Positions 12,545 to 32,145 are shown, counted from the first letter of the stretch. The stretch is 64,000 nt of DNA from Gammaproteobacteria bacterium (GCA_965221695.1 OZ244905.1:512001-576000); one strand, 5' to 3'. A program made the numbers and translations. The notes: a model not told the origin generated them from the letters alone.

Positions 12545-12703
12545 AGAAACTCTGAACAAGTCCATCCTGGACTTGTCAGAGTACGGAAAACAAAAATGCG
12601 ATTTTTGTTTTCCTCACAATATCAATGCCTTACAGTCATTGATATTGACGATACATCCTTGTATCGCAGGAACCTTTGAGAGGCTTAATCAGAGGTTCCT
12701 TAA
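12541..12703 (-). mobile_element. MITE copy 2, flanked by TTAA on both sides
   Basis: Near-identical reverse complement of 63724-63882; TTAA at 12541-12544 and 12700-12703. Confidence 0.88.
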
Positions 12704-13608
12704 AGGAGCTTCATAGGCGGCCTGAAGCGCCGAAAATAATGAGCAGGCAAACCGGCAACGCCAAGCCGGTAAACGAACACATCGCCGGCATAAGGTTCAT
12801 CCGCTAATTGAGATTCGTTCAGCCCTTGTTTTGCCGTGGTGATGAACAGCCAATCATAATCCTTACCGCCGAACGTAACACAGGTAGGCTGGCTGACCGG
12901 CAGATCCAAGATGTAATCAACGGCGCCGTTCGGTGTATAACGCACAACACGCCCGGCGCCCCAATGCGCGCTCCAGAGACATCCTGTGTTATCCACCTCG
13001 GCGCCGTCCGGTTCTGCGCCGTTTTCCGTTTCGGCAAACACGGATCGCTTGCCCGGACTACCGGCAACCGGATCGAACTCATAGCGGTAAATTACCCGGC
13101 GCGCGGAATCGGCAAAATACATGAGCGATGCATCCGGACTCCAGCAAAGTCCGTTGGCAATACCCACGCCACTTACATGCTTACGAGTTTGCAGCTCTTG
13201 GTCGAGACTATATAGACTCCCACCCCGTCCCACAGCAGGGTCGCCCGCCTCCACCATAGTCCCTGCCCAGAAACGGCCCTGGCGATCGACTTTACCATCA
13301 TTAAAACGTGTCCCTGCTGGCATTATGTCCGTACGGCGGATCCGCGCGACCGCCTGCGAAGGATAGTGAAACCAGGCAAAACCACTTTCAAAAGCTACAA
13401 TCAGTGTCGTCTTATCTCCAGTAAAACCGAATGAACACAGACGTTCAGGCGTGGGATAGGAAGACAACCGCGCAGTCGGCAGGTGCATGGAATAAAACAG
13501 GCAGGACTGTATATCGGTCCAACACAAGGTTTCTGTTTCAGTTTGCCACTGCACGCCCTCGCCAAGAATATTTCCCGTTTTGATGATAGTGATGAGTTCT
13601 GATTTCAT
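12700..13608 (-). CDS. SMP-30/gluconolactonase family sugar lactonase
   Basis: LGEG, RFNDGKVDRQGRFWAGTM, NGLCWSPD and PDGAEVD motifs. Confidence 0.92.
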   Translation of the reverse strand: MKSELITIIKTGNILGEGVQWQTETETLCWTDIQSCLFYSMHLPTARLSSYPTPERLCSFGFTGDKTTLIVAFESGFAWFHYPSQAVARIRRTDIMPAGTRFNDGKVDRQGRFWAGTMVEAGDPAVGRGGSLYSLDQELQTRKHVSGVGIANGLCWSPDASLMYFADSARRVIYRYEFDPVAGSPGKRSVFAETENGAEPDGAEVDNTGCLWSAHWGAGRVVRYTPNGAVDYILDLPVSQPTCVTFGGKDYDWLFITTAKQGLNESQLADEPYAGDVFVYRLGVAGLPAHYFRRFRPPMKLL

Positions 13609-13627
13609 CGATATAGCATTTTTTTTA

Positions 13628-13658
13628 TTGACTACTTATAATAATATAAATATTATAA
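13628..13658 (+). promoter_or_regulatory. Sigma70-like promoter overlapped by an inverted-repeat operator
   Basis: TTGACT (13628-13633) N17 TATTAT (13651-13656); TATAATA-N7-TATTATA inverted repeat at 13637-13657, between divergent lactonase and SDR genes. Confidence 0.6.
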
Positions 13659-13698
13659 ATATATCAAAACAATCATCTCATTTTTATAGGCATTTAGC

Positions 13699-14496
13699 AT
13701 GACAATCAACGGTTCAGATATTCCATTTGACAACGGCTCGCCGCTGTATCCAGACCTGTTAGACGTATCGGTATTCATTACTGGTGGTGGTTCCGGGATT
13801 GGCGCAGCGTTTACCCGCGCCTTCGCGTTGCAAGGCGCTAAAGTAGGATTTGTATCGATGCGCACAGGTCCTGCCGGCAAACTTTGTGACGAGATTGAGC
13901 GGGAGACAGATCGGCGTCCGATATTTATCCAATGTGATATTCGCGAGATCGATGCGTTACGCAAGGCAATCTGCAATGTGCGTTCAAAACATGGCCCTAT
14001 ACAGGTGTTGATTAACAATGCTGCCCGCGATACCCGCCACGCAGTTGATAAATTCACCGTAGAAGAATGGGACGATACATTAAACACCAACCTCAGACCG
14101 TATTTTTTTTCAGCACAAGCCATACTCGATGATATGAAAGCGCGCGGCCAGGGAAGTATCATCAATCTTGGATCAAATTGCGCAGAACTGGGCCTTACCG
14201 GTTACCCCGCATATGTTACCGCAAAAGCCGCAATTAAAGGAATGACTAAAGCGTTAGCTCGTGAGTTGGGCGCAGATAACATCCGCATCAACGCGTTGGC
14301 GCCTGGTTGGGTGATAACGGAACGCCAGAAAAAGATGTGGGTTACCGAACAAGCGCTTGAGGAATGCCTTAAGGAACAGTGTCTTAAATCGGTAATCAGC
14401 GAAGAGGATATTGCCAATGTTGCTTTGTTTCTCGCTTCCAATGCCTCGGCGATGATCACCGGACAGACTATTATCGTTGACGGCGGTCGGGTATGA
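13699..14496 (+). CDS. SDR aldose dehydrogenase (D-galactose/D-xylose/L-arabinose 1-dehydrogenase-like)
   Basis: TGGGSGIG, NNAARD, YVTAK and PGWVITERQ motifs; sugar cluster context. Confidence 0.85.
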   Translation: MTINGSDIPFDNGSPLYPDLLDVSVFITGGGSGIGAAFTRAFALQGAKVGFVSMRTGPAGKLCDEIERETDRRPIFIQCDIREIDALRKAICNVRSKHGPIQVLINNAARDTRHAVDKFTVEEWDDTLNTNLRPYFFSAQAILDDMKARGQGSIINLGSNCAELGLTGYPAYVTAKAAIKGMTKALARELGADNIRINALAPGWVITERQKKMWVTEQALEECLKEQCLKSVISEEDIANVALFLASNASAMITGQTIIVDGGRV

Positions 14497-16271
14497 AGAA
14501 AGCCAGACCGCAGCGACTGAGAAGCGCAGATTGGTTCAATAACCCGGCAGACCCGGGCATGACCGCGTTGTATCTGGAACGCTATTTAAACTTCGGGTTA
14601 ACCTTGGAAGAACTACAGTCCGACCGTCCGGTTATAGGTATCGCCCAAACTGGTTCTGATCTCGCGCCATGCAATCGCCATCACCTGGAACTCGCCGTTC
14701 GTATCAAGGAGGGTATTCGAGATGCCGGTGGGATCCCGATGGAATTTCCACTGCACCCCATACAGGAAACCGGCCGCCGGCCGACCGCATCGCTTGATCG
14801 CAACCTGCAGTGTCTGGGCTTGATAGAGGTATTGCATGGCTATCCCCTGGACGGCGTTGTGTTGACCACGGGTTGCGATAAAACGGCCGCCGCCTTGTTG
14901 ATGGGCGCAGCTAGTGTGAATATCCCCGCTATCGGTTTCTCGGTAGGTCCCATGTTGAATGGAAGATACCTTGGAAAATGCGTCGGTTCCGGCGCCGCCA
15001 TTTGGGATGCGCGCCAGAAATTGTCCGATGGGAAAATAGATCATAAGACTTTCCTGGATATAGCGGTCAGTTCTGCACCTTCTGTTGGTCACTGTAATAC
15101 CATGGGCACCGCGTTGACTATGAACTGCTTGATCGAAGCATTGGGTATGGCATTGCCTGGCTCTGCGACAATCCCAGCGCCTTATCGCGAACGTCAGCAA
15201 GCCGCCTACCATACCGGTAAGCGCATTGTGGATATGGTATGGGAGGATTTGACGCCCGGTAAAATTTTAACCAACAGAGCTTTCTACAACGCTATCGTGG
15301 TTTGCGCGGCGATTGGCGGTTCCACCAATGCGCCCATCCATATCAATGCAATAGCCGCTCATGCCGGCATCCGGCTGACGCTGGAGGACTGGCAGGAACA
15401 GGGGCAATCCATCCCACAATTGGTCAACTGCCAACCGGTCGGTGAATATTTATCTGAAGAGTTTCACCAGGCGGGTGGCGTAGCGGCGGTCATTAGCGAT
15501 TTGCTTCAGGCGGGTCTGCTCAATAAAGATGAATTGACGGTCACCGGCAAGACTATTGATGAGAATTACCGCTTAACCGGAATTATCGATCCCGAAGTGA
15601 TCAAAACCGTGTCCAGTCCGGTCAGAGAGGCGGCAGGCTTTACAGTCATGAGCGGAAACCTGTTCGATACGGCAATCATGAAAACAGCGGCCATCAATGA
15701 AGAATTTGCTCATAAATATATATCCACCGATGACCATCCCAATGTTTTTACCGGTGTCGCCGTGGTGTTCGACGGGCCTGAAGATTACCGTCATCGCATC
15801 AACGACCCGACATTAAATATCAATGAAGAAAGCATCCTGGTAATGCGCGGCGCCGGTCCTATCGCTTATCCGGGTTCTGCTGAAGTCGTAAATATGCAAC
15901 CCCCCGATGCATTGATAAAAAAAGGTGTGCTCGCCTTGCCAACCCTGGGTGACGGGCGACAAAGCGGCACCTCTTCGGCGCCATCGATTTTGAATGCATG
16001 TCCGGAGGCCGCTGCCGGCGGCAACATGGCAATTTTGAAAACGGGCGACCGGATTCGTATTGACTGGCTTGGCAGACGGGTCGATGTATTGCTCACAGAG
16101 CAGGAAATCGCTCAACGCAAAGAACATCTGAGATTCGAAATGCCTGAAAATCAAACCTGGTGGCAACAGATTTACCGGGAACGCGTCACTCAGCTCAGTG
16201 AAGGCGCGACTTTCAAAGGCCTGACTTCTTTCCATAATATTCGTGAACACAAGCCACGACACTCACATTGA
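14493..16271 (+). CDS. IlvD/Edd-family sugar-acid dehydratase (probably galactonate/arabinonate)
   Basis: PCNRHH, GCDKT, GHCNTMGTA, GGSTNA and GDGRQSGTS motifs. Confidence 0.9.
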   Translation: MKKARPQRLRSADWFNNPADPGMTALYLERYLNFGLTLEELQSDRPVIGIAQTGSDLAPCNRHHLELAVRIKEGIRDAGGIPMEFPLHPIQETGRRPTASLDRNLQCLGLIEVLHGYPLDGVVLTTGCDKTAAALLMGAASVNIPAIGFSVGPMLNGRYLGKCVGSGAAIWDARQKLSDGKIDHKTFLDIAVSSAPSVGHCNTMGTALTMNCLIEALGMALPGSATIPAPYRERQQAAYHTGKRIVDMVWEDLTPGKILTNRAFYNAIVVCAAIGGSTNAPIHINAIAAHAGIRLTLEDWQEQGQSIPQLVNCQPVGEYLSEEFHQAGGVAAVISDLLQAGLLNKDELTVTGKTIDENYRLTGIIDPEVIKTVSSPVREAAGFTVMSGNLFDTAIMKTAAINEEFAHKYISTDDHPNVFTGVAVVFDGPEDYRHRINDPTLNINEESILVMRGAGPIAYPGSAEVVNMQPPDALIKKGVLALPTLGDGRQSGTSSAPSILNACPEAAAGGNMAILKTGDRIRIDWLGRRVDVLLTEQEIAQRKEHLRFEMPENQTWWQQIYRERVTQLSEGATFKGLTSFHNIREHKPRHSH

Positions 16272-16287
16272 AACAGGGGTGTAACCA

Positions 16288-17478
16288 ATGGTTAAAACAA
16301 TCACAATGAGACCCTGCAAGCAAAAAATACCGGTTCTGATCTCTTTGCCCATTGCGCTGTTATTATCCGGAGTGGACGATACTTCTCTGGCGACGGAAGT
16401 GTCCGCTGAAAAGATATGGCGAGGCGTTGATGTGTCCTATATCAATGAGTTGGAGGACTGTGGCGCCGTATACCGTGTGAACGGACAACGCCGTGATCCG
16501 TATACAATACTTGCAGAGAAAGGCGCCAACGTTGCTCGTTTGCGCCTTTTGCACACCCCGGACTGGACAAGCTACAACACACTGGCGGATGTAACCCGGA
16601 GCGCCCGTCGAGCCAGAGAAAACAACATGAAGATTGTACTGGCTTTTCATTACTCGGATGATTGGGCTGATCCGAACAAGCAACAAATACCCGCGGCCTG
16701 GGAGAAAGCCGAATCGGTCGAGGAAACAGCAACGCTATTATACGATTATACGTATGCCGCCCTGGTAGCATTGGATAAGGAAGATTTACTTCCGGACTAT
16801 GTGCAGGTGGGCAATGAAATCAATTCCGGCATCGCGCATAAAAACCCGCAACTGGATTCATGGGATAAGAATCCGCAACGCAATATCAGATTGTTGAATG
16901 CCGGCATCGCCGCGGTTAAAGCTGTTGTAGTTGCAGTAGACCGCCCGCTGAAAACCATACTTCACATCGCTCAACCGGAAAACATCGAACAGTGGCTGGA
17001 TAATGCGATAAAACTGGGATTGTCGGACTTTGATCTCATCGGCAGCAGCTATTACTCAAAATGGTCAGATGTCCCCTTGCAGAACGTGGAAACCCTGGTG
17101 CGCAAACTGCGGAACAAGTATAACAAGGACATTGTCATTGTAGAGACCGCTTATATCTGGACGCTGGGCTATAACGACAATGCCCACAATATTCTGGGCG
17201 CGGACACACTGGTCAAAGGCTATGATGCCACCCAGGATGGACAACGCCGCTACCTGATCGATTTGCAACGCGCAGCGCTGAATGGCGGCGGCCTGGGAAT
17301 CACCTACTGGGAACCGGCCTGGATTTCCTCGAGTTGCCAGACCCGTTGGGGGTGGGGTCCCGGATCGCATTGGGAAAATGCCGCGTTGTTTGATTTTAAG
17401 AATTCGGAATTGCACAAAGGCGCTGATTTTCTCAGTCACGACTTCTCAACCACATCCAGGAATAAATCCGAACAATAG
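16288..17478 (+). CDS. GH53 endo-1,4-beta-galactanase, exported
   Basis: GVDVSY, FHYSDDWADP, VQVGNE (acid/base), IVETAY (nucleophile), YWEPAW and WENAALFDF motifs; signal peptide. Confidence 0.92.
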   Translation: MVKTITMRPCKQKIPVLISLPIALLLSGVDDTSLATEVSAEKIWRGVDVSYINELEDCGAVYRVNGQRRDPYTILAEKGANVARLRLLHTPDWTSYNTLADVTRSARRARENNMKIVLAFHYSDDWADPNKQQIPAAWEKAESVEETATLLYDYTYAALVALDKEDLLPDYVQVGNEINSGIAHKNPQLDSWDKNPQRNIRLLNAGIAAVKAVVVAVDRPLKTILHIAQPENIEQWLDNAIKLGLSDFDLIGSSYYSKWSDVPLQNVETLVRKLRNKYNKDIVIVETAYIWTLGYNDNAHNILGADTLVKGYDATQDGQRRYLIDLQRAALNGGGLGITYWEPAWISSSCQTRWGWGPGSHWENAALFDFKNSELHKGADFLSHDFSTTSRNKSEQ

Positions 17479-17507
17479 GGCAACCCGAAGATTTGGGAGA
17501 ATGTCTT

Positions 17508-19076
17508 GTGGAACTGACCTCTATTGATCTGTTTATCATTATCGCTTACGCCATTGGTATCATCAGCCTGGCTACCTGGGTTTCACGCGAAGAGCGAGGA
17601 CATCAGAAAAACAGCACAGATTATTTTCTCGCCGGTAAAGCGCTGCCCTGGTGGGCGATCGGCGCTTCGCTGATCGCCGCCAATATCTCTGCTGAGCAAA
17701 TCATCGGCATGTCCGGTTCCGGTTACGCGTTGGGCCTGGCCATCGCCTCCTATGAATGGATGTCGGCCATTACCATCATCATCGTCGGCAAATACTTTGT
17801 GCCTATTTTTCTCAAACACAACATCTATACGATGCCGCAATTTCTGGAACAACGCTATGACCACCGTGTGCGAATGGTGCTTGCGGTTTTTTGGCTGGGA
17901 GTTTATGTTTTTGTCAACCTGACTTCTATACTCTGGCTGGGCACACTGGCCATCAATGCCATTACCGGGCTGAATTATTTTTATGGCTTGCTGCTGCTGG
18001 GTGCGCTGGCGCTGGCCTATTCCCTGTACGGTGGTCTGAAGGCGGTTGCATTTACCGATATCATCCAGGTTATCCTGCTGGTATTCGGCGGGTTGATGAT
18101 CTCTTGGCTGTCGCTCACCGCGATTGGCCAGGGAGAAGGTATTGTCGCCGGCTTTCGGCAACTCGTTGCCGCGGCGCCTGAAAAGTTCGACCTGATATTG
18201 AGTCCGGATAATCCGCACTACATCAGCTTGCCCGGCATCTCGGCGCTGGTCGGCGGGATGTGGATCATGAACCTGTCTTATTGGGGATTTAACCAGTACA
18301 TTATTCAACGGGCGCTGGCGGCGCGCAGTCTGCGCGAAGCGCAACGGGGTATTGTGTTCGCGGCCTTCCTGAAACTGCTCATGCCTATCCTGGTGGTCTT
18401 GCCCGGTATTGCCGCGGTGATACTGGCGCCCGATTTGACGGCGCCGGACCAGGCTTATCCGGAAATGATGAAACTGGCGCCGAACGGTTTGCGCGGGTTG
18501 GTTTTTGCCGCGCTGATCGCAGCCATTCTGTCCTCCATCGGCTCCATGATGAACAGCATTTCCACCATATCAACGCTGGACATCTATCGCCACTTGCAAC
18601 CTAATACTGACGAACGGCGCCTGGTCATCATCGGACGTATCATCGGGGTAACAGCGCTGGCATTGGCCATCGTCTGCGCCGAACCACTATTGGGCAATTT
18701 CGAACAGGCATTTCAGTATATCCAGGAATTCACCGGTTTTTTTACGCCTGGAATCGTGGTGATCTTTTTGCTGGGAATGTTCTGGCGCAGAATGACAGCG
18801 GCGGGCGCCCTCGCCGCAGCCATCAGTTCCGCAGTCTTCTCTTTCCTGTTGAAAATGATCTGGCCCGGCTTGCCGTTTCTTGACCGGGTGGGGCTGGTAT
18901 TTCTTCTGTGCGCTGGCGTTGCGGCATTACTGTCGCTTTATTATTGCGCTGAAGAACGTGAACAGGGCGTTGCTATCGATCATGGCGCGATCAATTACCG
19001 CACCACAACAGGGTTCAATATCGCCTCTATTGGCGTCATTCTGATCCTCGCTGCGCTGTATGCCACCTGGTGGTAG
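17508..19076 (+). CDS. Sodium:galactose/glucose symporter (SSS family, SGLT-like)
   Basis: YFLAGKALPWWAIGASLIAANISAEQ and WGFNQYIIQRAL motifs; GTG start at 17508 after a GGAGA RBS. Confidence 0.93.
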   Translation: MELTSIDLFIIIAYAIGIISLATWVSREERGHQKNSTDYFLAGKALPWWAIGASLIAANISAEQIIGMSGSGYALGLAIASYEWMSAITIIIVGKYFVPIFLKHNIYTMPQFLEQRYDHRVRMVLAVFWLGVYVFVNLTSILWLGTLAINAITGLNYFYGLLLLGALALAYSLYGGLKAVAFTDIIQVILLVFGGLMISWLSLTAIGQGEGIVAGFRQLVAAAPEKFDLILSPDNPHYISLPGISALVGGMWIMNLSYWGFNQYIIQRALAARSLREAQRGIVFAAFLKLLMPILVVLPGIAAVILAPDLTAPDQAYPEMMKLAPNGLRGLVFAALIAAILSSIGSMMNSISTISTLDIYRHLQPNTDERRLVIIGRIIGVTALALAIVCAEPLLGNFEQAFQYIQEFTGFFTPGIVVIFLLGMFWRRMTAAGALAAAISSAVFSFLLKMIWPGLPFLDRVGLVFLLCAGVAALLSLYYCAEEREQGVAIDHGAINYRTTTGFNIASIGVILILAALYATWW

Positions 19077-21451
19077 TCGCCAGTTCGTCCGCTGGCTTCT
19101 AAAGTTTCAGCACTGACGGATAATTGACCCGTCTCGTCGGTTACGCGCGCCAGGACGGCGGCTCTGCCGTTTTCACTGGTAACGCTATCAGGACCGATGA
19201 TTTTCAAGCCCTCCCCCACTCTGAATTTGATGCGCAGTCCGGTGACCGGAACAGTCGTTGCGTTGGCGTCGATGATCCGAGCATGAACAAACAGCAGATC
19301 ATTGAGCGTCGGAGTTATTCCCCAGGTTGCAAGCCGGGCCTCAACAGACACTGCCGCGCCGGGTGTGCGCACCCTGTGGCGCGCGATTTCTCTGCCTTGC
19401 AGGTAAGCGACTGCTTCCAGTACGCCTGGAATAAAACGTTCAATATGAAAAGTAAATGGCGGGTGTCGCAGGTTCCAGGACATCCGATCCTGGTCGGGGC
19501 TTCGTCGCTCAAGACTCCTGCCATTCAGAAACAGCTCCACCTCATCGCCATTGGAAAAAACCCGTACCCTACGCGGCGAATCTTCCCGCCATTCGTTTGC
19601 AATATGGATGACCGGTCCGCCGGAAAAACGTGTCGAAAATTCATCAGCATCGCGTTGACTGCGAAAAAAATAATAGGCGGGTTTAGGCAACCGTTCCAGG
19701 CTCATCAGCCCCGAAGCTTCGAGATCATCCGCATAGCCGCGATTATAGTCGAACATCGCCCAGTAACCGTCGGCAAAAGCCGGTGTGGAAAGATTATCAT
19801 TATGCGCTTCCTGCACATTGGTCGCTTGTTGCAATAACCTGATTTCACCGTCGGCCAGCAGTTGGCGACTGTTGCGCGCCGCTTCTTCCAGGTTTTGCCA
19901 TTCGTGCTGTTGCAACCCGGCATTCTGGGCATAATATTCCCAATCGCCATACTCCGATACGAGATAGGGCTTAGCCGGAATGGGACGATCCGGATGCAAC
20001 AGACGGTGTTGCCGGGCTTGCAGGTAGATGTCATACCCTTCCGGCAACCAGCCGGCGGAATAGCCCTGGTTGCCCGGATATTCCTCGCGTACAATATCAG
20101 CAAATGCTTCCACCAGCGTCTGCGGCATTGGACTCTCGTTCAGTGAACACTCCCACGCAAAGACACTGGGATGATTGCGGTCGCGCCGCACCAGGTCGCG
20201 ACAAGTCTGTAACACATGTTTGTTGAAGACCGGATCAGGATTGTAGTATTGCCAACCCGGAATTGCGTTCAGAAGAACCAGACCCAACTCATCCGCGGCG
20301 CGCATGAAATGGCGCGAATGCGGGTAATGAGACAAGCGCACATAGTCAAAACCGGCTTCTTTTATCAGTTTGGCATCGCGGAAATCAGCGTTTGGCGGCA
20401 ACGCATAGCCTACATAAGGGTATTCCTGATGCCTGTTCACGCCGCGTAAAAACAGTTTCTCGCCATTGATTCGAATGCCCTCCGTAGAAACATCGATATG
20501 CCGGATGCCAATTTGCGTTTCACGCTCATCGATCACCCTGTCCTTGCTCACTACCTGTGTTCTAAGTTGATAAAGCGCAGGCGCGCGCGGTGTCCACAGT
20601 CTTGGGGACACAACGATGATATTCGTTGTATGTTCAAGGTCAGAACCGGCATTGATCTGTATTTCCTCCGAACTCCTGGTTGCGACTGCTTGGTCGCCAT
20701 CCAGCAAAGTATGGACGATATTGAAATGCCGCGGGGTTTCCCCCTGGTTGGCAATATGAGTTTTTATCCTTACATCAGCGCGGACCTGGGTCACTTGGGG
20801 ATAGGTGATGAACACACCGCCGCCAGCCACGCGCTTTGCCAGCATTTCATCGGTAATATGCAGGCTATCGCGCAACAACAGTCTGACCTCGCGATACAGC
20901 CCGCCATAAAAATTGAAATCGAGCTCAGCTAGCGGCTTAGGGCCGGTCAGTGGATTATCCCGATTATCCAGGTGGATCAGCAAACGGTTTTGTTCGCCAA
21001 ACCGGAGTTTGTCAGAGAGGTCTACCGTGAACGGCAGATAGCCGCCCATATGCGCAAAGATATGCTCGCCGTTCGAATAGACCTGGGCAACACCCATAGC
21101 GCCCTCAAACCGCAACCACACAGTTTTGCCTCGCCACGCCCGGTGGGCAAAAAGAGAACGCTTGTACAGCGCATCGCCCTGCCATTGGTCATTGACGATG
21201 CGCGGTTCGATCTTTGCGCTATGTGGCAACAGAACCGGTTGCCAACCAGACACCGGGGGAGCGCTCGGCTTATACGTATCGCCGGGTTCAAAACGATAAA
21301 ACAACCAGTCATCCGTGAGTAATTGTTCGCTTGGTAACTGCTGCGCCAAAGCCGTTGTTTCAGTAGTCACCGCGGCCATCACCAAACCGGCTTGGCTATA
21401 CACAAATAAGGAAATCGCCGAAACGAAAATAGCCGATAACATGTTCACCAC
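18995..21451 (-). CDS. GH2 beta-galactosidase, exported
   Basis: GGYLPF, YGGLYR, RGVNRHQEYP, RLSHYP, RDRNHPS..W...NE and SEYG motifs; signal peptide. Confidence 0.92.
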   Translation of the reverse strand: MVNMLSAIFVSAISLFVYSQAGLVMAAVTTETTALAQQLPSEQLLTDDWLFYRFEPGDTYKPSAPPVSGWQPVLLPHSAKIEPRIVNDQWQGDALYKRSLFAHRAWRGKTVWLRFEGAMGVAQVYSNGEHIFAHMGGYLPFTVDLSDKLRFGEQNRLLIHLDNRDNPLTGPKPLAELDFNFYGGLYREVRLLLRDSLHITDEMLAKRVAGGGVFITYPQVTQVRADVRIKTHIANQGETPRHFNIVHTLLDGDQAVATRSSEEIQINAGSDLEHTTNIIVVSPRLWTPRAPALYQLRTQVVSKDRVIDERETQIGIRHIDVSTEGIRINGEKLFLRGVNRHQEYPYVGYALPPNADFRDAKLIKEAGFDYVRLSHYPHSRHFMRAADELGLVLLNAIPGWQYYNPDPVFNKHVLQTCRDLVRRDRNHPSVFAWECSLNESPMPQTLVEAFADIVREEYPGNQGYSAGWLPEGYDIYLQARQHRLLHPDRPIPAKPYLVSEYGDWEYYAQNAGLQQHEWQNLEEAARNSRQLLADGEIRLLQQATNVQEAHNDNLSTPAFADGYWAMFDYNRGYADDLEASGLMSLERLPKPAYYFFRSQRDADEFSTRFSGGPVIHIANEWREDSPRRVRVFSNGDEVELFLNGRSLERRSPDQDRMSWNLRHPPFTFHIERFIPGVLEAVAYLQGREIARHRVRTPGAAVSVEARLATWGITPTLNDLLFVHARIIDANATTVPVTGLRIKFRVGEGLKIIGPDSVTSENGRAAVLARVTDETGQLSVSAETLEASGRTGDYHQVAYSAARIRMTPIEAILNPVVVR

Positions 21452-24400
21452 ATCTTCCAGTTCATGCCCAGGAAAAAGGTTCGACCATAAACGCTGTAGG
21501 AGCGCAAATTCTGGTCATCGTTATTTTGCGTGGTGCGGGATGTGTCGTTGGTCAGGTTCTGGCCTTGCAAACGCAGCGAGAGATTAGTATTTAGCTGATA
21601 AGCCAGGCTGGCGTCGATACTGATGGCAGAGTCCAAACCGCGCAATGTTGAACCGTCCCAACCGAAGCCAATGGTAAAGTCCGAGTGGTATTTCATTCCC
21701 AGGCGCAAATCAAACTTGTTCCAGTAAAACCACAAGTCAGCGGTTGCCGTGTGTTTGGCTAAACCCGCGATAGTATAAGGGTTGTGTGCGGGATGAAATT
21801 CCTCAATATCCGAATCGGCAAATGCGTAATTTGTATAGATGCCGGCGGACAAACCCTTCAGGCCGCTCGGCAATAATCCAGTAAATGGCGCCTGGAACGT
21901 AAGCTCCACTCCGCGGGTATCCCCTTCCAGTCCGTTTACCGGGGCGAATAACTCCAATATGCGGCCATCTCTTTCTTCGATGCTGCGGGTAATATAACCG
22001 ATATAATTATCTATCCACTTGTAATATAGGTTGACTGCCGCCAGGGATTCCGGGGCAAAATACCACTCGTAGGAGAGGTCAACCTGTGTTGCGGTGAAAG
22101 GATCCAGCCTGGGGTTGCCCGAATTGCCCTCTATCCGGCCAGAGGTGGCATTGATAATTTTACCCACACGCAATTCATCCAAAGGCGGGCGCGATATGGC
22201 TTTGGCTATACCCATGCGCACTATATTTTCTTCATCGAGAAAAAAGTTGATGCCCGCGCTGGGCAGAATTTCGGTGTAATCGTTACTGATGGACGCGCCG
22301 AACAGGTTATAACTCTTTGTGCCCACATCGACGATGCGCACGCCAATATTGGCCGTATAATAGCGGGCGTCGCCAAACACGCCTTTAAAGTTCGCCTTGA
22401 TATAGCCGGCCAGGTTGTCCTCGCTGACCTTCCAGTATCTTTCCCTGTCCACCCTGGACAGCTTGGTATCGACGCCACCGAATGCATCCGCCGCAACCTG
22501 GAAAGACGGCGCTGTCAGCAGCGGCGGCGCGGCAAACGCAGAAATACGATAGCAGCGGAAAACATCCGCTAATGCCTGCGCAGTTCCGCCGCCGTAAGAC
22601 ATAGTGAAGTCTTCCCAGATGACTTCTTTTTCACGGTCGGCGTAACGAACACCGAAATCAAGCCCGCTGAACTGGCCCTTGTCAAAAGACATCCTGAAAT
22701 CCAGTTGATAAGACCAGAGATCATCCTCCAACCCGGAACCTTCGTTGTAACTGTCGCGGACAATCAATTGCGCGCGCGCTGGCATCTCAGCAAGCGAGCC
22801 GGCAGGAGCGCTGATTGAAGGACGGCTACGAAAATCGTATCGGAAAGTCACATCCTGCTGATCGAGATACAGGCTGTGCCAGTAGTTGTCGCGTTCCGCT
22901 GTTGAATAGGCGATGTCAGCGCTGACCTGCAACCTCCTGCCTGACAATACGATATTCAGTCCCTGTGTGAATATCGAATTTGTCTGGTTATATCTCGCCA
23001 GCACATGGCGGATCTCAAAATCGTGCGCAGTGGCCGCCACGGCAAGATCATCAACAATCACCACATCTGAATAACGGCCAGTCTGTTGATTATCCCAATT
23101 GCCCAGGCCCTGATACCAGGTGTGGTCCTGTTCCACGTCAAATTCAAATTCAGCGTAGACAGCGTCGTATTTAATATCGATCGCAGCATTGGGGCGAAAT
23201 TGCAACGCACCGAACAAGCCGATCCGGTCGGTATTCATTTTATCCGTTTCCAGTTGCGCGCCCCAAGGCGCATAGGCCTTGGCGCCCTTGCCATCCAGGT
23301 CGCCACCGCCGGCAGGAAGATTGGGCTGGCCTTTCGAGCCGGTATTAAATCCCCAGGCCTGGTACAGAGGAGAGCCGTTCTTTTGCTTCTGGGTGGTAAA
23401 ACCCAATGCTATGCCGACTTTTTCATCGGCGAATGCTTTCACCAACGAACCGCTGAAGCGGTTGCCCCATTGATTGTAATCGGGAATATCCTTGCCTGCA
23501 TCGTAATAGACGCCGGCGCCGCTTAGCGTGTATCTGGGTCCGTTATGCTCCAGTGGCGAGATGGTTTCCAGGTTGATTGTCCCGGCGATGCCACCGGCAA
23601 TCAGGTCGGCAGACTGAGTTTTGTATACCTGGACCCGAGAAATCAATTCCGCCGGGTATTGTTCCCAGCGGATGTTGCGGCTCGGTTCGGAGCTGGCTAC
23701 CTCGCGCCCGTTGACCGTGCCCAGCGCCATACGCGGTCCCAGTCCCCTGAGTGTCGCCTGGCTTTGGTTGCCCCGATCGCGTGTGCCGTTTACTCCCGGG
23801 AGACGTATCAGCGCTTCGGCAATCGTTATATTCGGCAACGCATCTATATCATCCAGCGACAACGTCTCGACGATGTGCTCTGACGCAGACTTGATATCCA
23901 GCGCATCTTTGAGCGCGCGACGGATAGCTATTACTTTCACTTCCTCTATGACATGTTCACTTGCTGCTACTGTGTCTGTTTCGGCGTCGGTTTCATCGTC
24001 GGCTGGCGCTGTTTCAACATTGGCTTGCGCGTGTTCTTCAGATGCGTCTGCGATCATGATATCGGATGCCCAGTCATGCGTTGAACGGTGGCCAAACGCG
24101 CTTGCCTGTCTGATTGCATTCAGGTCGTAAGACGCCGTCAATCCGATACGATAGTCATTGTCCGTGTTTTGTCCGGTAAGTTGTTCACCGAAGAAGTCCC
24201 AACGCCATCCGTTCGCTGAATCCAACCGTGTGCCCATACGCAAGCGGGATACGCCATTGGCCGCCAGACTCACTTCGGTGAAAGGAGTCAACAAGCCCCG
24301 TGGCGTGCCTATACCATAACGGAGTTCCAGATCCATTCGCTGGGGTTCCCAAGAAGGTTTGGCGCTTGCTGTGGTGGAAGCAATCTGTTCCAGGCTACCA

Positions 24401-27400
24401 CTCCTAAGACGCTGATCCGAGCGCCATAGAGCAGTATTATCGTCAACCTGACCCCACGCGGGTTGCAGGGACATAGCCAGACCTTCAGCGCCCAAATCAG
24501 TTTCGACGTTAACCGTCAATTGCGCCCCCCATTCCTTAATTGCTTTTACGTCATGGACCAGCAGATAGCGACCACTGGCTTGTACATTGAGCCCCAAACG
24601 AGTGTCTGTATACGATAATCCACCACCCAATTCCGCACCCAAACCTGTTTCCGCATCGCCACCATCCCAGCGCGCGCCCAGCTCAAGGCGCGGGGCTAAC
24701 TGCGAATGTTGCGACAGCGCCCAGTTCGCGCGCCCTTCCAGCGCTACCCGCGCCCGGCTCGAATGGGCATGTGCTGACGGTAGCGCGCCAGCGCTGCTTA
24801 ACTCCTTTGACACATCGAAGGCATTGGCCTGATCTGATTCCATCCAAACGCCGAAAACATCGGCCTTCACGGCCAGCATAATCTGATCCAGACTTGTCAG
24901 TTCGTTGCGTCCACCCAGCGCCGCAAGCCACATTTCAAGTCCAGTATCGAGATTCTCAATCGTGTTATCAGACAATGATACTTCACCGAATCCATAACCC
25001 AACACACCCCACAAACCCAGGCCAGGCCGCGGCGACCAATGCGCATAAGGGTAAATATTTCTCAATGTCGTCTCCAACTCGCCGCTACCGCTGGCGTCAC
25101 TGGTATAGTCCAGTTCGCCCATACTTTGAGAGATAGCCACCCCCAGCAACATATCCGTATTCCAGCGATAATCCAAACCCAGGTAGCCTGAGATTACCTC
25201 ACCGTCCAGTGACAGATTATTTGTCGGTCGGCTGTCAAAACCACTCATACTGCCCCGACCCCAGAGTGTCCAGGCCGCGACGCTGCCTTGATCATCCTGT
25301 TCACCTAACGCCAGTTGGAACGCGCTTTGCGACAGCAATTCGCGAACTGAAAAGATACCGGGGCGCGGACTGTCCGCCAGCTTGACTTGCATCCCTTGTG
25401 ATGATGATGACGAAGCAGCAAAACGTCCACTTAACATATCCACGGCGTCCGCCGCCATGGTTCGTCCCACAACAGCCAAACCCGCTTCCATTGTCTGCTC
25501 CAGTTGCGCAGAATCAGTGATGATGGCAGTTGCGACCTGATTCGACCAGGCGCTGTTCCAGCCCAGACGACTGGCGCTCACCGCATACCGGTAGATTATC
25601 CCCGCTTTCACTGCATTGTCCGTATATACAGTGTCCGCAACGACCCACGCCAGCCATTCCGGCGCACACACCGTATCTCCGTCCTCACACCGGTACATAT
25701 TGTAACCATCCAGTTCGCCGCCACTATCGTTCGACGGCGCCCCCCAACTCAGACGTACCCCGTTAATGCTGGACGAGGTGACTGTCAATCCTGTCGGCGC
25801 ATCCGGTCCTTTGACAATGACTACTAGCGCATCGGATTGGCTACTCTCCCCTGCGCCGCTGTTGGCGCTGACTGTGTAACAATAGGTGGCGCCCTTGCTG
25901 ACGGTTGTGTCCTCGGCCAATACAGTGTCTACCGCCAGGTTGGTCTGTAGCGCAATCAATTCGGCGCAACTGCTGCCGTCGCCCCGGTAGACGGTATAAT
26001 TGGTTAACGGATGGGTGCCTGTATCAGCGGGCGCCGTCCAACTCAAGGTTACTTTTTCTTCATTTGCTTGCGCGCGTAAACCTGTCGGTGTTCCAGGCGC
26101 TACCGGAACCCTCGGGGTAGCCGTCACCTGGTTCGACCACTCGCTGCCCCACCCCAAACGACTGGCTCCCACTGCGTACCGATAGGTTTTGCCGGCAGTC
26201 ACACCCGTGTCCTCATAGGCCGTGTCGCTCGTCACCCACGCCAGCCACTCCGGCGTACACACCGTCTCACCCTCTACACACCGGTACACGTTGTAGCCAT
26301 CCAATGACCCGCCGCCATCGTCCGCCGGGGCCGTCCAACTCAAAATCACTTTTTGTTCATTCGCTTGCGCGCTTAATCCTGTCGGCGTTCCCGGCGGCTT
26401 TGGCTCCTTTGCCGTGACTGTCACCTGGTTTGACCACTTGCTGCCCCACCCCAAGCGATTGGCTCCTACTGCGTAACGATACGTTTTGTCGACAGTCACT
26501 CCCATATCTTTATAGGTTGTGCCGCCCGGCGCCCAGTCCAGCCACTCCGGCGTACACGCCGCTTCGTTCTCCTCACACCGGTACACGTTATAGCCATCCA
26601 ACGCGCCACCCCCATCGTCCGCAGGCGCCGTCCAACTCAAGCCGATATCGTTGGCGCTTATCGAATTCACAGTCAAACCGATTGGCGCACTTGGCCCCAC
26701 AACCTTCACCTGTACAGTTTGAGATCGGGAACTCTCTCCCGCCCGGCTGCTGGCGGTGATCTGGTAACAATAAGTACTACCTTTTGACACCGTTATGTCT
26801 TCTGCAGATCTGTTATCGAGTGATATATGTCTTCGAAACGTGACAAAGCGGGAACAACCTTCTCCCTCACTCCGATACAGGATATACGCCGTCAACCTGT
26901 GGCTCCCTCTATTGGCCGGCGCTTTCCAACGCAAGACCACTTTTTCTTCATTTGCTTGCGCGCGCAATCCTGTCGGCGTACCTGGCGCCTTGGGCGCTAC
27001 CGGGGCTTGTGCCGTGGCCGTCACCTGGTTCGACCAACTGCTGCCCCAATTCAAGCGACTGGCGCCCACTGCGTAACGATAGGTTTTACCAGCAGTCACT
27101 CCCGTATCTTCGTAGGTCGTACCGCTCGTTACCCAGGCCAACCACTCCGGCGTACACGCCGTCTCGCCTTCCATACACCGGTAGACGTTGTAACCATCCA
27201 ACGCGCCGCCACCATCGTCCACCGGCGCCGCCCATCCCAACCTGATAGCTTTGGCTTTCGCCGAACTTACTGTCAAACCAGTCGGCGCATCAGGACCTTT
27301 GACGGTCACCACCACAGTGTTGGATTGGCTACCCTCGCCAGCGATGCTGCTGGCGCTGACTGTGTAACAATAGACGCTGTTCTTGCTCACCGTCGTGTCC

Positions 27401-27954
27401 TCTACGGCATTGTTAATTACCGCGAGATGGCTATGTAGCGCAGTCAACCCTACGCAACTGCTGTCGTCGCCCCGATAGACGGTATAAGCAGTTAACGGAT
27501 GAGAACCTGGATCAGCCGGAACTTTCCAACGCAAGGTCACTTTTTCTTCATTCGCTTGTGCGCTTAATCCTGCCGGCGCGCTGGGCGCCTGTGGCGTAAC
27601 TGCCTTCGCTATCACCTGGTTCGACCAGTTGCTTACGGCAGAATTTCGTGATGCGGCCACAGCGTAACGATATGTTTTTTCTTCAGTCACTCCAGTGTCT
27701 TCATAACTCGTCCCGCTCGTCACCCAAGCCAACCACTCTGGTGTGCACGCCGTCGTCCCTTCCTCGCATCGGTACACGTTGTATCCATCCAACACTCCAC
27801 TGCCATCATCCGCTGGCGCAGTCCAGGTCAAACCAATCGTTGTGCTACTGGTTGAGCTCACTTGCAGTCCCATCGGAGCAGGCGTTGTCTGTGCAATAGC
27901 GTGTGACAACAAGCAGATCAGAAACACGCTTATGCCAAAGCGAAACAACAACAT
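21445..27954 (-). CDS. Fusion protein: signal peptide + 8 FN3 domains + autotransporter-type beta-barrel + TonB-dependent receptor
   Basis: FN3 repeats ~27890-25525; helix plus barrel (WTLWGRG...GYLGLDY...RWDGGDAETGLGAELGGG...YRIGLTASY) ~25500-24120; TonB-box-like IEEVKV, plug (LPNITIAEALIRLPGV), GNPRLDPF and terminal GRTFFLGMNWKMW ~23960-21445. Confidence 0.85.
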   Translation of the reverse strand: MLLFRFGISVFLICLLSHAIAQTTPAPMGLQVSSTSSTTIGLTWTAPADDGSGVLDGYNVYRCEEGTTACTPEWLAWVTSGTSYEDTGVTEEKTYRYAVAASRNSAVSNWSNQVIAKAVTPQAPSAPAGLSAQANEEKVTLRWKVPADPGSHPLTAYTVYRGDDSSCVGLTALHSHLAVINNAVEDTTVSKNSVYCYTVSASSIAGEGSQSNTVVVTVKGPDAPTGLTVSSAKAKAIRLGWAAPVDDGGGALDGYNVYRCMEGETACTPEWLAWVTSGTTYEDTGVTAGKTYRYAVGASRLNWGSSWSNQVTATAQAPVAPKAPGTPTGLRAQANEEKVVLRWKAPANRGSHRLTAYILYRSEGEGCSRFVTFRRHISLDNRSAEDITVSKGSTYCYQITASSRAGESSRSQTVQVKVVGPSAPIGLTVNSISANDIGLSWTAPADDGGGALDGYNVYRCEENEAACTPEWLDWAPGGTTYKDMGVTVDKTYRYAVGANRLGWGSKWSNQVTVTAKEPKPPGTPTGLSAQANEQKVILSWTAPADDGGGSLDGYNVYRCVEGETVCTPEWLAWVTSDTAYEDTGVTAGKTYRYAVGASRLGWGSEWSNQVTATPRVPVAPGTPTGLRAQANEEKVTLSWTAPADTGTHPLTNYTVYRGDGSSCAELIALQTNLAVDTVLAEDTTVSKGATYCYTVSANSGAGESSQSDALVVIVKGPDAPTGLTVTSSSINGVRLSWGAPSNDSGGELDGYNMYRCEDGDTVCAPEWLAWVVADTVYTDNAVKAGIIYRYAVSASRLGWNSAWSNQVATAIITDSAQLEQTMEAGLAVVGRTMAADAVDMLSGRFAASSSSSQGMQVKLADSPRPGIFSVRELLSQSAFQLALGEQDDQGSVAAWTLWGRGSMSGFDSRPTNNLSLDGEVISGYLGLDYRWNTDMLLGVAISQSMGELDYTSDASGSGELETTLRNIYPYAHWSPRPGLGLWGVLGYGFGEVSLSDNTIENLDTGLEMWLAALGGRNELTSLDQIMLAVKADVFGVWMESDQANAFDVSKELSSAGALPSAHAHSSRARVALEGRANWALSQHSQLAPRLELGARWDGGDAETGLGAELGGGLSYTDTRLGLNVQASGRYLLVHDVKAIKEWGAQLTVNVETDLGAEGLAMSLQPAWGQVDDNTALWRSDQRLRSGSLEQIASTTASAKPSWEPQRMDLELRYGIGTPRGLLTPFTEVSLAANGVSRLRMGTRLDSANGWRWDFFGEQLTGQNTDNDYRIGLTASYDLNAIRQASAFGHRSTHDWASDIMIADASEEHAQANVETAPADDETDAETDTVAASEHVIEEVKVIAIRRALKDALDIKSASEHIVETLSLDDIDALPNITIAEALIRLPGVNGTRDRGNQSQATLRGLGPRMALGTVNGREVASSEPSRNIRWEQYPAELISRVQVYKTQSADLIAGGIAGTINLETISPLEHNGPRYTLSGAGVYYDAGKDIPDYNQWGNRFSGSLVKAFADEKVGIALGFTTQKQKNGSPLYQAWGFNTGSKGQPNLPAGGGDLDGKGAKAYAPWGAQLETDKMNTDRIGLFGALQFRPNAAIDIKYDAVYAEFEFDVEQDHTWYQGLGNWDNQQTGRYSDVVIVDDLAVAATAHDFEIRHVLARYNQTNSIFTQGLNIVLSGRRLQVSADIAYSTAERDNYWHSLYLDQQDVTFRYDFRSRPSISAPAGSLAEMPARAQLIVRDSYNEGSGLEDDLWSYQLDFRMSFDKGQFSGLDFGVRYADREKEVIWEDFTMSYGGGTAQALADVFRCYRISAFAAPPLLTAPSFQVAADAFGGVDTKLSRVDRERYWKVSEDNLAGYIKANFKGVFGDARYYTANIGVRIVDVGTKSYNLFGASISNDYTEILPSAGINFFLDEENIVRMGIAKAISRPPLDELRVGKIINATSGRIEGNSGNPRLDPFTATQVDLSYEWYFAPESLAAVNLYYKWIDNYIGYITRSIEERDGRILELFAPVNGLEGDTRGVELTFQAPFTGLLPSGLKGLSAGIYTNYAFADSDIEEFHPAHNPYTIAGLAKHTATADLWFYWNKFDLRLGMKYHSDFTIGFGWDGSTLRGLDSAISIDASLAYQLNTNLSLRLQGQNLTNDTSRTTQNNDDQNLRSYSVYGRTFFLGMNWKMW
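25525..27890 (-). repeat. Intragenic tandem FN3 repeats of two alternating types
   Basis: Type A (LDGYNVYRCxEGxTxCTPEWLAWV) in 5 units and type B (HPLTAYTVYRG...YCY) in 3 units, with high DNA similarity. Confidence 0.88.
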
Positions 27955-27985
27955 CTCATACCCTCCTAAACAATTGAAAGTATTG

Positions 27986-28020
27986 TTAGTGAAGCTCTGA
28001 CTTAATCAGAGTTTCCTTAG
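27986..28020. mobile_element. 27-bp mini-MITE (two TIR-like halves only) flanked by TTAG direct repeats
   Basis: TTAG-TGAAGCTCTGACTTAATCAGAGTTTCC-TTAG; equivalent to the first hairpin of the full MITE. Confidence 0.6.
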
Positions 28021-28045
28021 ATCAAAAAATATCTTTAATACAGCA

Positions 28046-28086
28046 TTGCAATTATATATTATTTATAATATAATATAAACATGCAA
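28046..28086. promoter_or_regulatory. Overlapping divergent sigma70-like promoters carrying the shared AT motif
   Basis: Plus strand: TTGCAA (28046-28051) N17 TATAAT (28069-28074). Minus strand: TTGCAT (28086-28081) N17 AATAAT. ATAATATAAA at 28070-28079. Confidence 0.55.
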
Positions 28087-28196
28087 ATTTTTTTTTTTAG
28101 CGCTCTTCTGGCTTTTATGAGTCGGATCGTAGCCATGGTGTTGGTTTGACAAGGACAGGTAATTAAATTTTTTATGTTTTTCAGGAGGTTATATCC

Positions 28197-29963
28197 GTGA
28201 ATAAGTTTCAGATAAACAGCATATGGCGCTGGCAAGGCAGAACAATATTTCTATCCTGGTTTTTTATATGTGTTTTACTTTTATTTTGTGATGACGTTTA
28301 TTCCAAGGATTGTAAGCAAAAAGCGCTTCCGTCGGATGGTTGTCAGCTAAATAGGCATGGACTTCTTGTTAATCATGCGCTTCATCTTATTGCTGATAAA
28401 GATAACTCCTCGGATGATGAGGATATCATCTTCGGTTTCGATAATGGGGACTACAAAAAAGCAAAAGAGAAAATGCGTCTGACAGACGAAGGTCTATTGG
28501 GAATAAACACCTCTACTCCTTCAGCCGTATTGGATGTGCGGGACAGACCGCTGAATTTCAAAGGAACAATAAACAAGAATAATGCTGACATTGCTACCTT
28601 AACGCCTGACTTGAGAGTCATTGCGCGTTTTGGCACGGACACATATGGTGACTCTTTATTATTGCGTGACGAAAGTAACGCAGGCCATCTGCCTAAGTTG
28701 AAGTCATATAGTGGAATGGCAATATCTGGAGGTAATATACTCAAGGTTCATCTGAGTCCGTCAAATGAACTATATGCTATTCATGATTTTGTATCAATGG
28801 TCGGACTGGATGTCGTCATGTTAGCAACGGACGCTGAGAATATTAATGCTGCCACGGATCTTCATGGCATTCACAGGTTGAATGGCCTCCCCCGAAAACA
28901 CAATCATTGGGATATTCGCGGTCGAGCTATTACCATGCATATGAACAGGCATAAATTCATTACTGTAGGTATTGGTTACGATGAAGACTATACGCCCAGA
29001 GAAAGGCTGGATGTTCACGGCGCTATTTTAATCGGCAACAATTTTCAGACTCAAAATCCCGTGCCCGGGACCATCCGCTATGCAAACGGGAGGTTTGAGG
29101 GGTATACCAATGACCAGTGGGAAGATCTGGGCGCGAAAAACGATGCCGATATCCTGGATCTACGCGAAATTTTCCTTCTTCCAGGACACGATGAGAGAGG
29201 CAAAATTGCCTTTGGCGTGGAATCAGCAAATGACGAGTACGGTAACAACTATATCGTCAACAGCCTTAATGCTCCACCTGACGATTCCTCTCATTTCTTA
29301 GTCGCAGCGGAGAAAGATGAATACAACTACAGTACTGATGATAGGCACACTTCCGGTGGAATCTCCGTAGTTACCAGCGATGCGCCACGATTTACCGTGA
29401 AGGGTAACGGTAATGCCTATATCCACAAACGTCTTTCTATCGGAGTAGGCGCGCCGGTACAGGATAGCGCGCTGACCGTGGCCGGCGCTGTTCATATAGG
29501 CCCCCGGAACTTGAAGCCAGCCACCTTTGATTATGATGACCATCTGGCAGATTACCTGTTATGGGTAGAGCGCGGCATCGTGAGTGAGGATTTTGCCATT
29601 GCAAATGTCAGACAGTGGAGCGACCATGTTTTCGATGAAAACTACCCGTTAAAACCCTTGTCTGAGGTCGAAGCTTTCATCCATGAAAATGGGCATCTGC
29701 CTGGTGTGCCTTCGGCAGAAGAAGTAGCTGATGATGGCTATAGCATGCATGATATGACGCGTATTCTGCTGGAGAAAGTAGAGGAATTGACGCTGCATAC
29801 GTTGGCCCAGCAAAAAGCCATCGAAAAACAGCAAGAAGAAATCTTGAGCTTGCGAACACAACTGACCCGGGTTGCCGAAGTTGTAGATGCGGAAATTGGG
29901 GAAACCGTACCGGTGAAGGGGCAACAAACACCGGCTCAGAAGGTTGGCAGTATCAGTTTCTGA
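28197..29963 (+). CDS. Exported fibre-like protein with Bacteroidota-type C-terminal chaperone-like/coiled-coil domain
   Basis: GLLGINTSTPSAVLDV-type repeats, GTIRYANGRFEGY, WSDHVFDENYPLKPLSEVEAFIHENGHLPGVPSAEEV...LLEKVEELTLH; AGGAGG RBS and hydrophobic N-terminus. Confidence 0.75.
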   Translation: MNKFQINSIWRWQGRTIFLSWFFICVLLLFCDDVYSKDCKQKALPSDGCQLNRHGLLVNHALHLIADKDNSSDDEDIIFGFDNGDYKKAKEKMRLTDEGLLGINTSTPSAVLDVRDRPLNFKGTINKNNADIATLTPDLRVIARFGTDTYGDSLLLRDESNAGHLPKLKSYSGMAISGGNILKVHLSPSNELYAIHDFVSMVGLDVVMLATDAENINAATDLHGIHRLNGLPRKHNHWDIRGRAITMHMNRHKFITVGIGYDEDYTPRERLDVHGAILIGNNFQTQNPVPGTIRYANGRFEGYTNDQWEDLGAKNDADILDLREIFLLPGHDERGKIAFGVESANDEYGNNYIVNSLNAPPDDSSHFLVAAEKDEYNYSTDDRHTSGGISVVTSDAPRFTVKGNGNAYIHKRLSIGVGAPVQDSALTVAGAVHIGPRNLKPATFDYDDHLADYLLWVERGIVSEDFAIANVRQWSDHVFDENYPLKPLSEVEAFIHENGHLPGVPSAEEVADDGYSMHDMTRILLEKVEELTLHTLAQQKAIEKQQEEILSLRTQLTRVAEVVDAEIGETVPVKGQQTPAQKVGSISF

Positions 29964-30990: not shown

Positions 30991-31037
30991 TTGTCAGCAG
31001 TCCGCTTGTTGCTATCGCAAACATCTGAGAAATGCGG

Positions 31038-31742: not shown

Positions 31743-31748
31743 GGTATC

Positions 31749-32144: not shown

Positions 32145-32145
32145 A

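Follow-up and report, generated by a model that had tools for sequence, protein, structure and literature searches.

In the SusC/SusD pairs of Bacteroidota, a surface glycan-binding element stands beside a TonB-dependent glycan importer; to our knowledge, Proteobacteria are without SusD. This study focused on a gene of a Gammaproteobacteria bacterium that encodes, in one polypeptide and in this order, a stalk of FN3 domains, an autotransporter-type beta-barrel and a TonB-dependent receptor. It lies on the minus strand of a 64,000-nt stretch of DNA (GCA_965221695.1, OZ244905.1:512001-576000), the whole of which is called the window below, and is a real, conserved fusion of two barrel families, of repeated origin, in a beta-galactoside utilisation locus. 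Outer-membrane proteins with more than one barrel have been known as a class since 2021, when Solan et al. (PNAS; PMC8346858) described 12,643 of them in 34 architectures, mostly of 8-stranded barrels; according to the main text of that paper, the families are lineage-specific, arose by independent fusions, and include 22-8, PagP-LptD (8-26) and FhaC-Porin (16-16) combinations. The window protein resembles this class in that a single chain gives full matches to two distinct families of outer-membrane barrel, with a linker between them (residues 897-1109 and 1337-2168, 52-aa gap), and in belonging to a lineage-specific family that arose by independent fusions, but its linker of 52 aa, and those of about 150 aa in relatives, differ from the median of 22 +/- 13 given in the main text. 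No combination of autotransporter and TonB receptor is named there, although the supplementary list of 34 architectures may hold one, and searches of main texts in the literature, two reviews of 2026 among them, found no description of such a fusion. Judged from its domain matches, the protein is a member of the multi-barrel class and no new category, in a combination that was not found described. The initial annotation, made from the sequence alone, had stated that no protein of this architecture was known to have been described, and this holds for the combination but not for the class.

The open reading frame (ORF), 21445-27954, starts with ATG and, as that annotation had claimed, is stop-free throughout its 2169 codons. 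The proposed signal peptide was recognised by eye, without a predictor, at the N-terminus of the translation (residues 1-21, MLLFRFGISVFLICLLSHAIA|QT), and on this reading it is an N-terminal Sec signal and the only export signal in the polypeptide. The region upstream of the gene is AT-rich. In the direction of transcription, the features of the gene are:

27962..27967, minus strand: Shine-Dalgarno sequence AGGAGG, 7 nt before the ATG at 27954, read directly in the sequence
27892..27954, minus strand: signal peptide at the N-terminus, residues 1-21, recognised by eye; homologues have similar N-termini
25540..27891, minus strand: passenger of 8 FN3 domains, residues about 22-805 (PF00041, 8 stretches, 186.5 bits)
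25279..25539, minus strand: pre-barrel segment, residues 806-892 (family consensus in alignment A1)
24121..25278, minus strand: autotransporter-type beta-barrel domain (barrel 1), residues 893-1278 (PF03797 and family conservation)
23950..24120, minus strand: inter-barrel linker, residues 1279-1335, made of the tail past the last strand and an acidic low-complexity stretch (about 50 aa)
23920..23949, minus strand: TonB-box region IEEVKVIAIR, residues 1336-1345 (alignment with relatives)
23578..23877, minus strand: Plug domain, residues 1360-1459 (PF07715, 52.9 bits)
21445..23577, minus strand: receptor barrel (barrel 2) to the C-terminal W (PF00593, 97.6 bits, residues 1637-2134)
21445-21447, minus strand: stop codon TGA, read in the sequence

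The fusion is genuine and is no assembly artefact. Logan contigs from two different studies run across the linker at 23947-24084 with 0 differences and 0 gaps: that of run X2 (12,699 nt) matches 21300-25335, and that of run X3 (2,592 nt) matches 23720-26288. This supports contiguity at the level of contigs rather than raw reads, with X2 or X3 possibly being the source sample of the window; run X4 covers the gene in small pieces. The window sits in a single-contig genome of 3.54 Mb, and there is no GC break at the junction. The acidic linker string, the IEEVKV motif and the aromatic ...NWKMW end described by the initial annotation are all present in the translation, and the linker contains a 21-nt tandem repeat (23990-24035). 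Residues 1279-1335, the 57 residues ahead of the TonB box, have no hydrophobic core of the kind seen in signal peptides. The nearest stand-alone receptors do begin with a signal peptide, so that the absence of one directly ahead of the TonB box of the window receptor argues against a false join, because joined genes would have kept it. A misassembly, sequencing error or lost stop that joined two genes, or a recent pseudogene, would be in keeping with the broken or truncated state of some homologues (P0012, P0016, P0010, P0011), but the identical bridging contigs, the single-contig genome, the missing second signal peptide, and the same fusion in 20 other collected proteins with both halves conserved make such an origin extremely improbable.

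Those homologues were collected in several ways. A word-indexed search with residues 805-1500 as the query gave P0002-P0007 and P0009 (2066-3348 aa), which share the barrel, a linker and the WKMW-ending receptor with the window protein and also carry FN3 repeats, together with the partial entries P0008, P0010 and P0011, which span the junction. Fused frames occur in four other genomes of the genus (G005, 3601 aa; G006, limited by its contig; G001, 1861 aa; G010, 1411 aa), and P0009 is part of the G005 protein because their barrels are identical. Starting from the G001 protein, a further search brought in P0373-P0377 at 73-81% identity and P0381-P0382 at 45%, all covering 100% of the junction query. 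A search of genome contigs for related loci returned a single one, on a 3.9-kb contig of a metagenome-assembled genome (MAG) of Gammaproteobacteria, which is the G006:C30 place. Altogether, the profiles of the barrel family and the receptor were found together, barrel first, in 21 of the 427 collected proteins (the window protein and 20 others, at 33-66% identity), so that the search across both barrels proposed by the initial annotation did yield relatives; 15 of these 21 start with a signal-peptide-like N-terminus, judged by eye. When the order was surveyed with the first 364 receptor residues (E <= 1e-40), five of its 126 genomes had this receptor type; they all belong to the window's genus, which contributed 23 genomes, and in each of them the receptor lies within a fused frame.

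Three groups of fused proteins could be distinguished: F1, the window protein and its closest relatives; F2, the G001 type; and F3, P0381 and P0382. Between profile envelopes, the linker of the window protein measures 52 aa; those of the remaining F1 members are longer (145-155 aa) and those of F2 and F3 shorter (28-40 aa). In a barrel tree of 99 rows, built by a quick search, F1 is a clade within which P0012, an entry stopping in the linker, is nested; the deepest starred branch divides it from F2 and F3, and the three groups are kept apart by unfused proteins, to which each of them is closest. The receptor tree places F2 and F3 as sisters on a long branch far from F1, and F1 with eight stand-alone receptors at 100% support. 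A more careful receptor tree (34 rows, rooted on 15 more distant receptors) has the window receptor as sister to all the rest of F1 plus the stand-alone clade, and monophyly of F1 is rejected in the approximately unbiased (AU) test at p = 0.00013, a value weakened by the tested group having been chosen after the first tree was seen. The simplest reading of these trees is that there were at least two independent fusions, one of F1 and one of F2 plus F3, and that within the F1 clade the autotransporter part was later replaced, probably, by a signal peptide and a domain of about 130 aa. Resemblances to a relic of the receptor's old signal peptide were noticed by eye in the linkers ('...VMVVAQQTDEA' in group 1, 'RRRAGRILAQA' in group 2) and were not used as evidence.

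The receptor half has all the parts that the initial annotation listed for it. Besides the matches to Plug and to the 22-strand-type barrel, it is matched over residues 1337-2168 by the NCBIfam model TIGR01782 (TonB-Xanth-Caul) at 534.6 bits (cut-off 310), and its TonB box, IEEVKVIAIRR, aligns with IEEITVTG, MEEVTVKG and EELVVTG, the mature starts of unfused and fused relatives. In its full-length match, TonB-box-like motif, plug, barrel, aromatic C-terminus (...NWKMW) and adjoining glycoside hydrolases it is like the TIGR01782 receptors of carbohydrate-utilisation loci in Proteobacteria; it is unlike them in having no signal peptide of its own and in that its N-terminus is covalently held by another barrel. 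It is 48-49% identical to Cellvibrio receptors, and 57-61% identical to the closest unfused receptors (P0252-P0254, P0256-P0259), which are nested among fused proteins in the receptor tree. In these unfused receptors a conserved domain of about 130 aa, which gave no Pfam match, separates the TonB box from the signal peptide that they have themselves. An STN domain (PF07660) is found in two other matches, P0355 and P0363.

Outer-membrane barrels have even numbers of strands with both ends in the periplasm. The main text of PMC8346858 states the same of these barrels. Since an autotransporter barrel ends in the periplasm, where TonB receptors begin, the fusion is feasible in its topology, as the initial annotation had reasoned, and receptors with extra domains before the TonB box (PF07660, or the domain of about 130 aa) do exist among the matches. 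The receptors of the STN/FecA type and those with the 130-aa domain (P0252-P0259) are like the window protein in tolerating extra sequence before the TonB box, but in those receptors the addition is a small periplasmic domain that follows the receptor's own signal peptide, compared with a secretion module of 1335 aa that includes a barrel. A merger of both barrels into one giant barrel, as in the engineered OmpX tandems cited in the main text of PMC8346858, was considered and is unlikely, a low-complexity linker of 28-155 aa and a complete plug lying between them.

Barrel 1 belongs to a family that otherwise stands at the end of its proteins. When residues 805-1300 were excised and compared with PF03797 they scored 31.2 bits (cut-off 26; E 2.4e-7), with residues about 897-1109 aligned to profile positions 1-213 of 255, and a six-frame search of the genome with PF03797 gave the same site 33.1 bits, the best of five matches, the other four being the ends of open frames of 3431-13912 aa. 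The full-length G001 protein reaches 43.6 bits, and 20 of 35 short members of the barrel family that were scanned match the profile. Ahead of the barrel, the motif L..GR..A..AVD....R (A1 consensus) is conserved, including L826, G830, R831 and R844, and is a candidate for the pore-spanning helix of autotransporters, its helicity being presumed. The helix and autotransporter-like barrel proposed initially can thus be kept as regards the beta-domain, which is above the PF03797 cut-off, and the conserved motif is a candidate for the helix. A HMMER search with residues 805-1335 against 1.84 billion representatives found 6615 proteins at E <= 0.001; among the 150 best representatives the match ends no more than 80 aa from the C-terminus in 140, and more than 300 aa follow it in two, the window protein and P0008. 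The family is therefore a large one, in which a terminal barrel closes long proteins built of repeats (Calx-beta, cadherin, He_PIG, FN3), and by this comparison the fused state is a rare derivative of it. The unfused close relatives P0013-P0015 have 8-10 residues past the last strand, and such a non-terminal last strand may have been a pre-adaptation that eased C-terminal extension. On the receptor side, the N-terminal domain that the nearest unfused receptors have ahead of the TonB box may likewise have been a pre-adaptation.

Compared with type Va autotransporters (PF03797), the window protein shares the N-terminal signal peptide, the repetitive passenger, the conserved pre-barrel segment and a beta-domain above the cut-off, but its barrel is not C-terminal. 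It ends near residue 1278 of 2169, with 834 residues past the query match (linker included) and about 890 past the last predicted strand, so that the beta-signal is internal; the barrel region also differs in size, at about 385 aa against about 255 profile positions of which only 1-213 were matched.

It could be argued that the protein is simply a TonB receptor with a large periplasmic N-terminal extension, in which barrel 1 has ceased to insert and the FN3 array is retained on the periplasmic side. The 130-aa domain before the TonB box of the closest unfused receptors and the two matches with PF07660 suggest that periplasmic N-terminal add-ons are usual in this clade, and the variant in G010, described below, keeps the receptor without most of the barrel. 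Constraint on barrel 1 points the other way. Among 267 unfused members, 49 columns of the alignment reach a conservation of 85% or more; of these positions the window protein retains 48, which is the median of the unfused members (5th percentile, 42), and the 16 fused proteins with a complete barrel retain 43-48. The internal barrel is therefore no decaying relic, such conservation being unexpected of one; FN3 copy number also varies as it does in surface stalks (proteins of 1698-3601 aa). A periplasmic array is, on this evidence, quite improbable.

For the passenger, Pfam gives eight fn3 stretches, the number claimed initially. The domains alternate between two subtypes, several have a Cys pair, and a tandem repeat in the DNA (26028-26640; unit 297 nt, 2.1 copies) falls within them. 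Repeat number differs widely among homologues, with fused full-length proteins that have an intact barrel ranging from 1698 to 3601 aa. This variation, and a content of FN3 domains only, fit a spacer or adhesin as well as a dock for glycan or enzyme, and capture of glycan by the stalk is put forward as a hypothesis. A two-barrel protein whose stalk serves adhesion to the surface of a host, a particle or a biofilm, sharing only export and regulation with the importer, would agree with the giant adhesin-like proteins (Calx-beta, cadherin, He_PIG, FN3) that this barrel family otherwise ends, five of which are open frames of 1314-13912 aa in the window's own genome, and with the lack of a carbohydrate-binding module among the Pfam matches of the passenger. 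Both independently fused groups, however, have FN3-type passengers in beta-galactoside loci, which is hard to explain if the halves are functionally unrelated, and we regard an adhesin of this kind as unlikely.

The galactan context was another claim of the initial annotation, and genes for a GH53 enzyme, a sodium:solute symporter and a GH2 enzyme do adjoin the fusion gene. The neighbouring genes are:

18995..21442, minus strand: GH2 beta-galactosidase-like gene, immediately downstream (Pfam GH2 domains; likely ATG at 21442, signal-peptide-like N-terminus)
17493..19076, plus strand: sodium:solute symporter, candidate inner-membrane sugar importer (PF00474, 238 bits)
16288..17478, plus strand: GH53 endo-beta-1,4-galactanase-like gene (PF07745, 322.9 bits; signal-peptide-like N-terminus)
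12700..16271: SMP-30/gluconolactonase-like gene (minus strand), short-chain dehydrogenase (plus strand) and IlvD/EDD-family dehydratase (plus strand), from Pfam

The GH2 gene is probably in the same operon as the fusion gene. The fusion stop codon had been said to overlap the GH2 start: it does overlap the listed GTG start, but an in-frame ATG 2 nt past the stop is likelier, because a signal-peptide-like sequence comes after it, so the two genes are tightly packed and do not necessarily overlap. The SMP-30-like, dehydrogenase and dehydratase genes may represent an oxidative route for galactose similar to that of De Ley and Doudoroff, and a gene for a GntR/FCD regulator is found further along. 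Beta-galactosidase genes stand beside the fusion gene in three genomes, and GH53 as well in two. The fused gene of G010 is flanked by a GH123-like gene on one side and by genes for GH53 and a LacZ-type GH2 on the other. In G005 a DDE transposase (L009:16683-18122) is inserted between the fused gene and the beta-galactosidase gene, and the LacZ-type ORF listed past it is the C-terminal part of that gene only.

From this gene context, a role in the uptake of galacto-oligosaccharides with a tethered surface stalk is likeliest. We infer that both barrels insert and that the stalk is exposed at the surface, and likewise what the substrate is and whether the FN3 domains bind anything. The lone N-terminal signal peptide would take the entire precursor of 2169 aa through Sec; barrel 1 (residues about 893-1278) would insert in the outer membrane and display the eight-FN3 stalk on the surface, and its last strand would end in the periplasm, from where the acidic linker of about 50 aa would lead to the TonB box and plug of the TIGR01782-type receptor, which would insert as a second, separate barrel. 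Secreted GH53 would cut beta-1,4-galactan, the receptor half would import the galacto-oligosaccharides released, the co-transcribed, periplasmic GH2 enzyme would trim them to release galactose, and the sugar could then enter through the sodium:solute symporter. The stalk, held 1:1 beside the importer, may serve as a length-variable surface spacer or as a binding element for polymer, enzyme or surface. Taken as a whole, this account of a vertically maintained two-barrel fusion that displays its stalk and imports galacto-oligosaccharides is held with moderate confidence.

A further step can be proposed more tentatively. At least twice independently, the lineage may have welded a type V barrel with an FN3 stalk onto the periplasmic N-terminus of a glycan TonB receptor, as an obligate covalent pair of exporter and importer that solves the problem for which SusD serves elsewhere; the stalk would capture polymer or dock the galactanase above the import pore, BAM would assemble barrel 1 from a non-terminal beta-signal, and pulling by TonB on the plug might couple to the neighbouring barrel, the TonB box being only about 50 residues from its anchor. 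With all of its parts together this is possible but doubtful. The initial annotation had likened the protein to SusC/SusD in one chain, and this description could not be upheld: the receptor is of the proteobacterial TIGR01782 type, there was no SusC-type model among its NCBIfam matches, and no SusD-family match among the 15 window ORFs scanned. There may still be a functional likeness, in that a surface-exposed element would be kept beside a TonB-dependent glycan importer, but here the tether is covalent and passes through the periplasm.

The same gene could also specify a polyprotein-like precursor, a single exported chain that is cut in the linker to give an FN3 autotransporter and a TonB receptor in equal amounts. 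The linker is poorly conserved, of 28-155 aa and low complexity, as would suit an exposed, protease-accessible segment; P0012 ends inside it, indicating that the halves are separable there at the level of the gene; and a shared signal peptide with fixed stoichiometry could be the selected trait. On the other hand, no cleavage motif or protease is evident, and the barrels, once cut, would have nothing to hold them to each other, yet there were at least two independent fusions, which argues that the tether itself was selected. Cleavage is accordingly considered improbable, and a tethered two-barrel importer remains the reading we prefer.

Several observations weigh against that reading. The modest PF03797 score of barrel 1 did not appear as a listing when the full-length protein was scanned with Pfam. 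Its region of about 385 aa has about 15 amphipathic beta segments in a crude scan, and it may be no classical 12-stranded barrel. Mean-field covariation (an effective 163 sequences and 434 columns, and noisy) gave several hairpin-like ladders, three of them after residue 1205, but no signal of barrel closure, and comparison of the barrel region with solved structures, by sequence and profile, returned nothing usable, one match at E = 1.4 being to an unrelated hypothetical protein; the ESM Atlas had no entry for the window segment or for P0132. The passenger has FN3-type domains alone, and no recognised carbohydrate-binding module in the Pfam scan. The neighbours scanned around the G001 fusion belong to type II secretion and include no glycosidases. 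P0380 of G010 (L011:7993-12228) is P0377 minus 287 aa in-frame, a deletion that removes most of the autotransporter-type barrel and leaves the signal peptide, two FN3 domains, the pre-barrel segment, the last strands, the linker and the receptor, so that in this lineage either display of the stalk is dispensable or the gene is decaying. Finally, P0012 ends in the linker and P0016 inside the barrel, while P0008, P0010 and P0011 start within or just before the barrel; such broken or partial entries could be either sequencing errors or real fission.

If both barrels insert, the protein would be a natural substrate for studying how BAM handles two barrels per chain and an internal beta-signal, and the first case found of a secretion barrel with a large surface passenger that is covalently paired to an energised importer. 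It would also point to a means by which marine and host-associated Gammaproteobacteria hold a surface element next to a glycan importer without SusD. The repeated origin of the fusion, one probable reversal and one deletion of the barrel provide natural variants for comparison, and a passenger-displaying barrel that tolerates a C-terminal addition of roughly 890 aa could be of use as an engineering scaffold.

The lineage is rich in giant proteins with a divergent autotransporter-like barrel. Outside the window, five more open frames (1314-13912 aa) of the same genome, G000, end in this barrel family, at the following places:

C1:2336024-2337121, barrel-family site
C1:1083536-1084633, barrel-family site
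C1:1037246-1038343, barrel-family site
C1:851773-852861, barrel-family site
C1:2224722-2225780, barrel-family site

In the relative G009 such frames extend to 21,139 aa, and 28 matches were counted in G036. The fused ORF of G001 (L010:8331-13916) begins inside an FN3 repeat without a signal peptide, and 215 nt upstream on the same strand there is an ORF of 1929 aa (L010:14131-19920) with FN3 domains only; this pair may be one gene that was broken, or misassembled in the repeats.

Just upstream of the fusion gene, many small contigs of runs X1 and X2 cover a short element at 27986-28026. Their depth is very high, reaching about 1016 in the bin 27883-28100, and there are loose ends on both sides, which suggests a dispersed short repeat; run X1 covers only this element. 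Two further plus-strand ORFs of the window have no Pfam family: one of 588 aa (28197-29963), in a stretch of low GC (34-43% versus about 53%), and one of 1276 aa (8714-12544) with a signal-peptide-like N-terminus. On the other flank of the fusion gene there are type II secretion genes (GspK-like, pseudopilin and GspF; 30097-36020, minus strand), and in G001 a gene for the secretin GspD (L010:5951-8107) adjoins the fused gene; type II secretion may be the export route of the GH53 enzyme.

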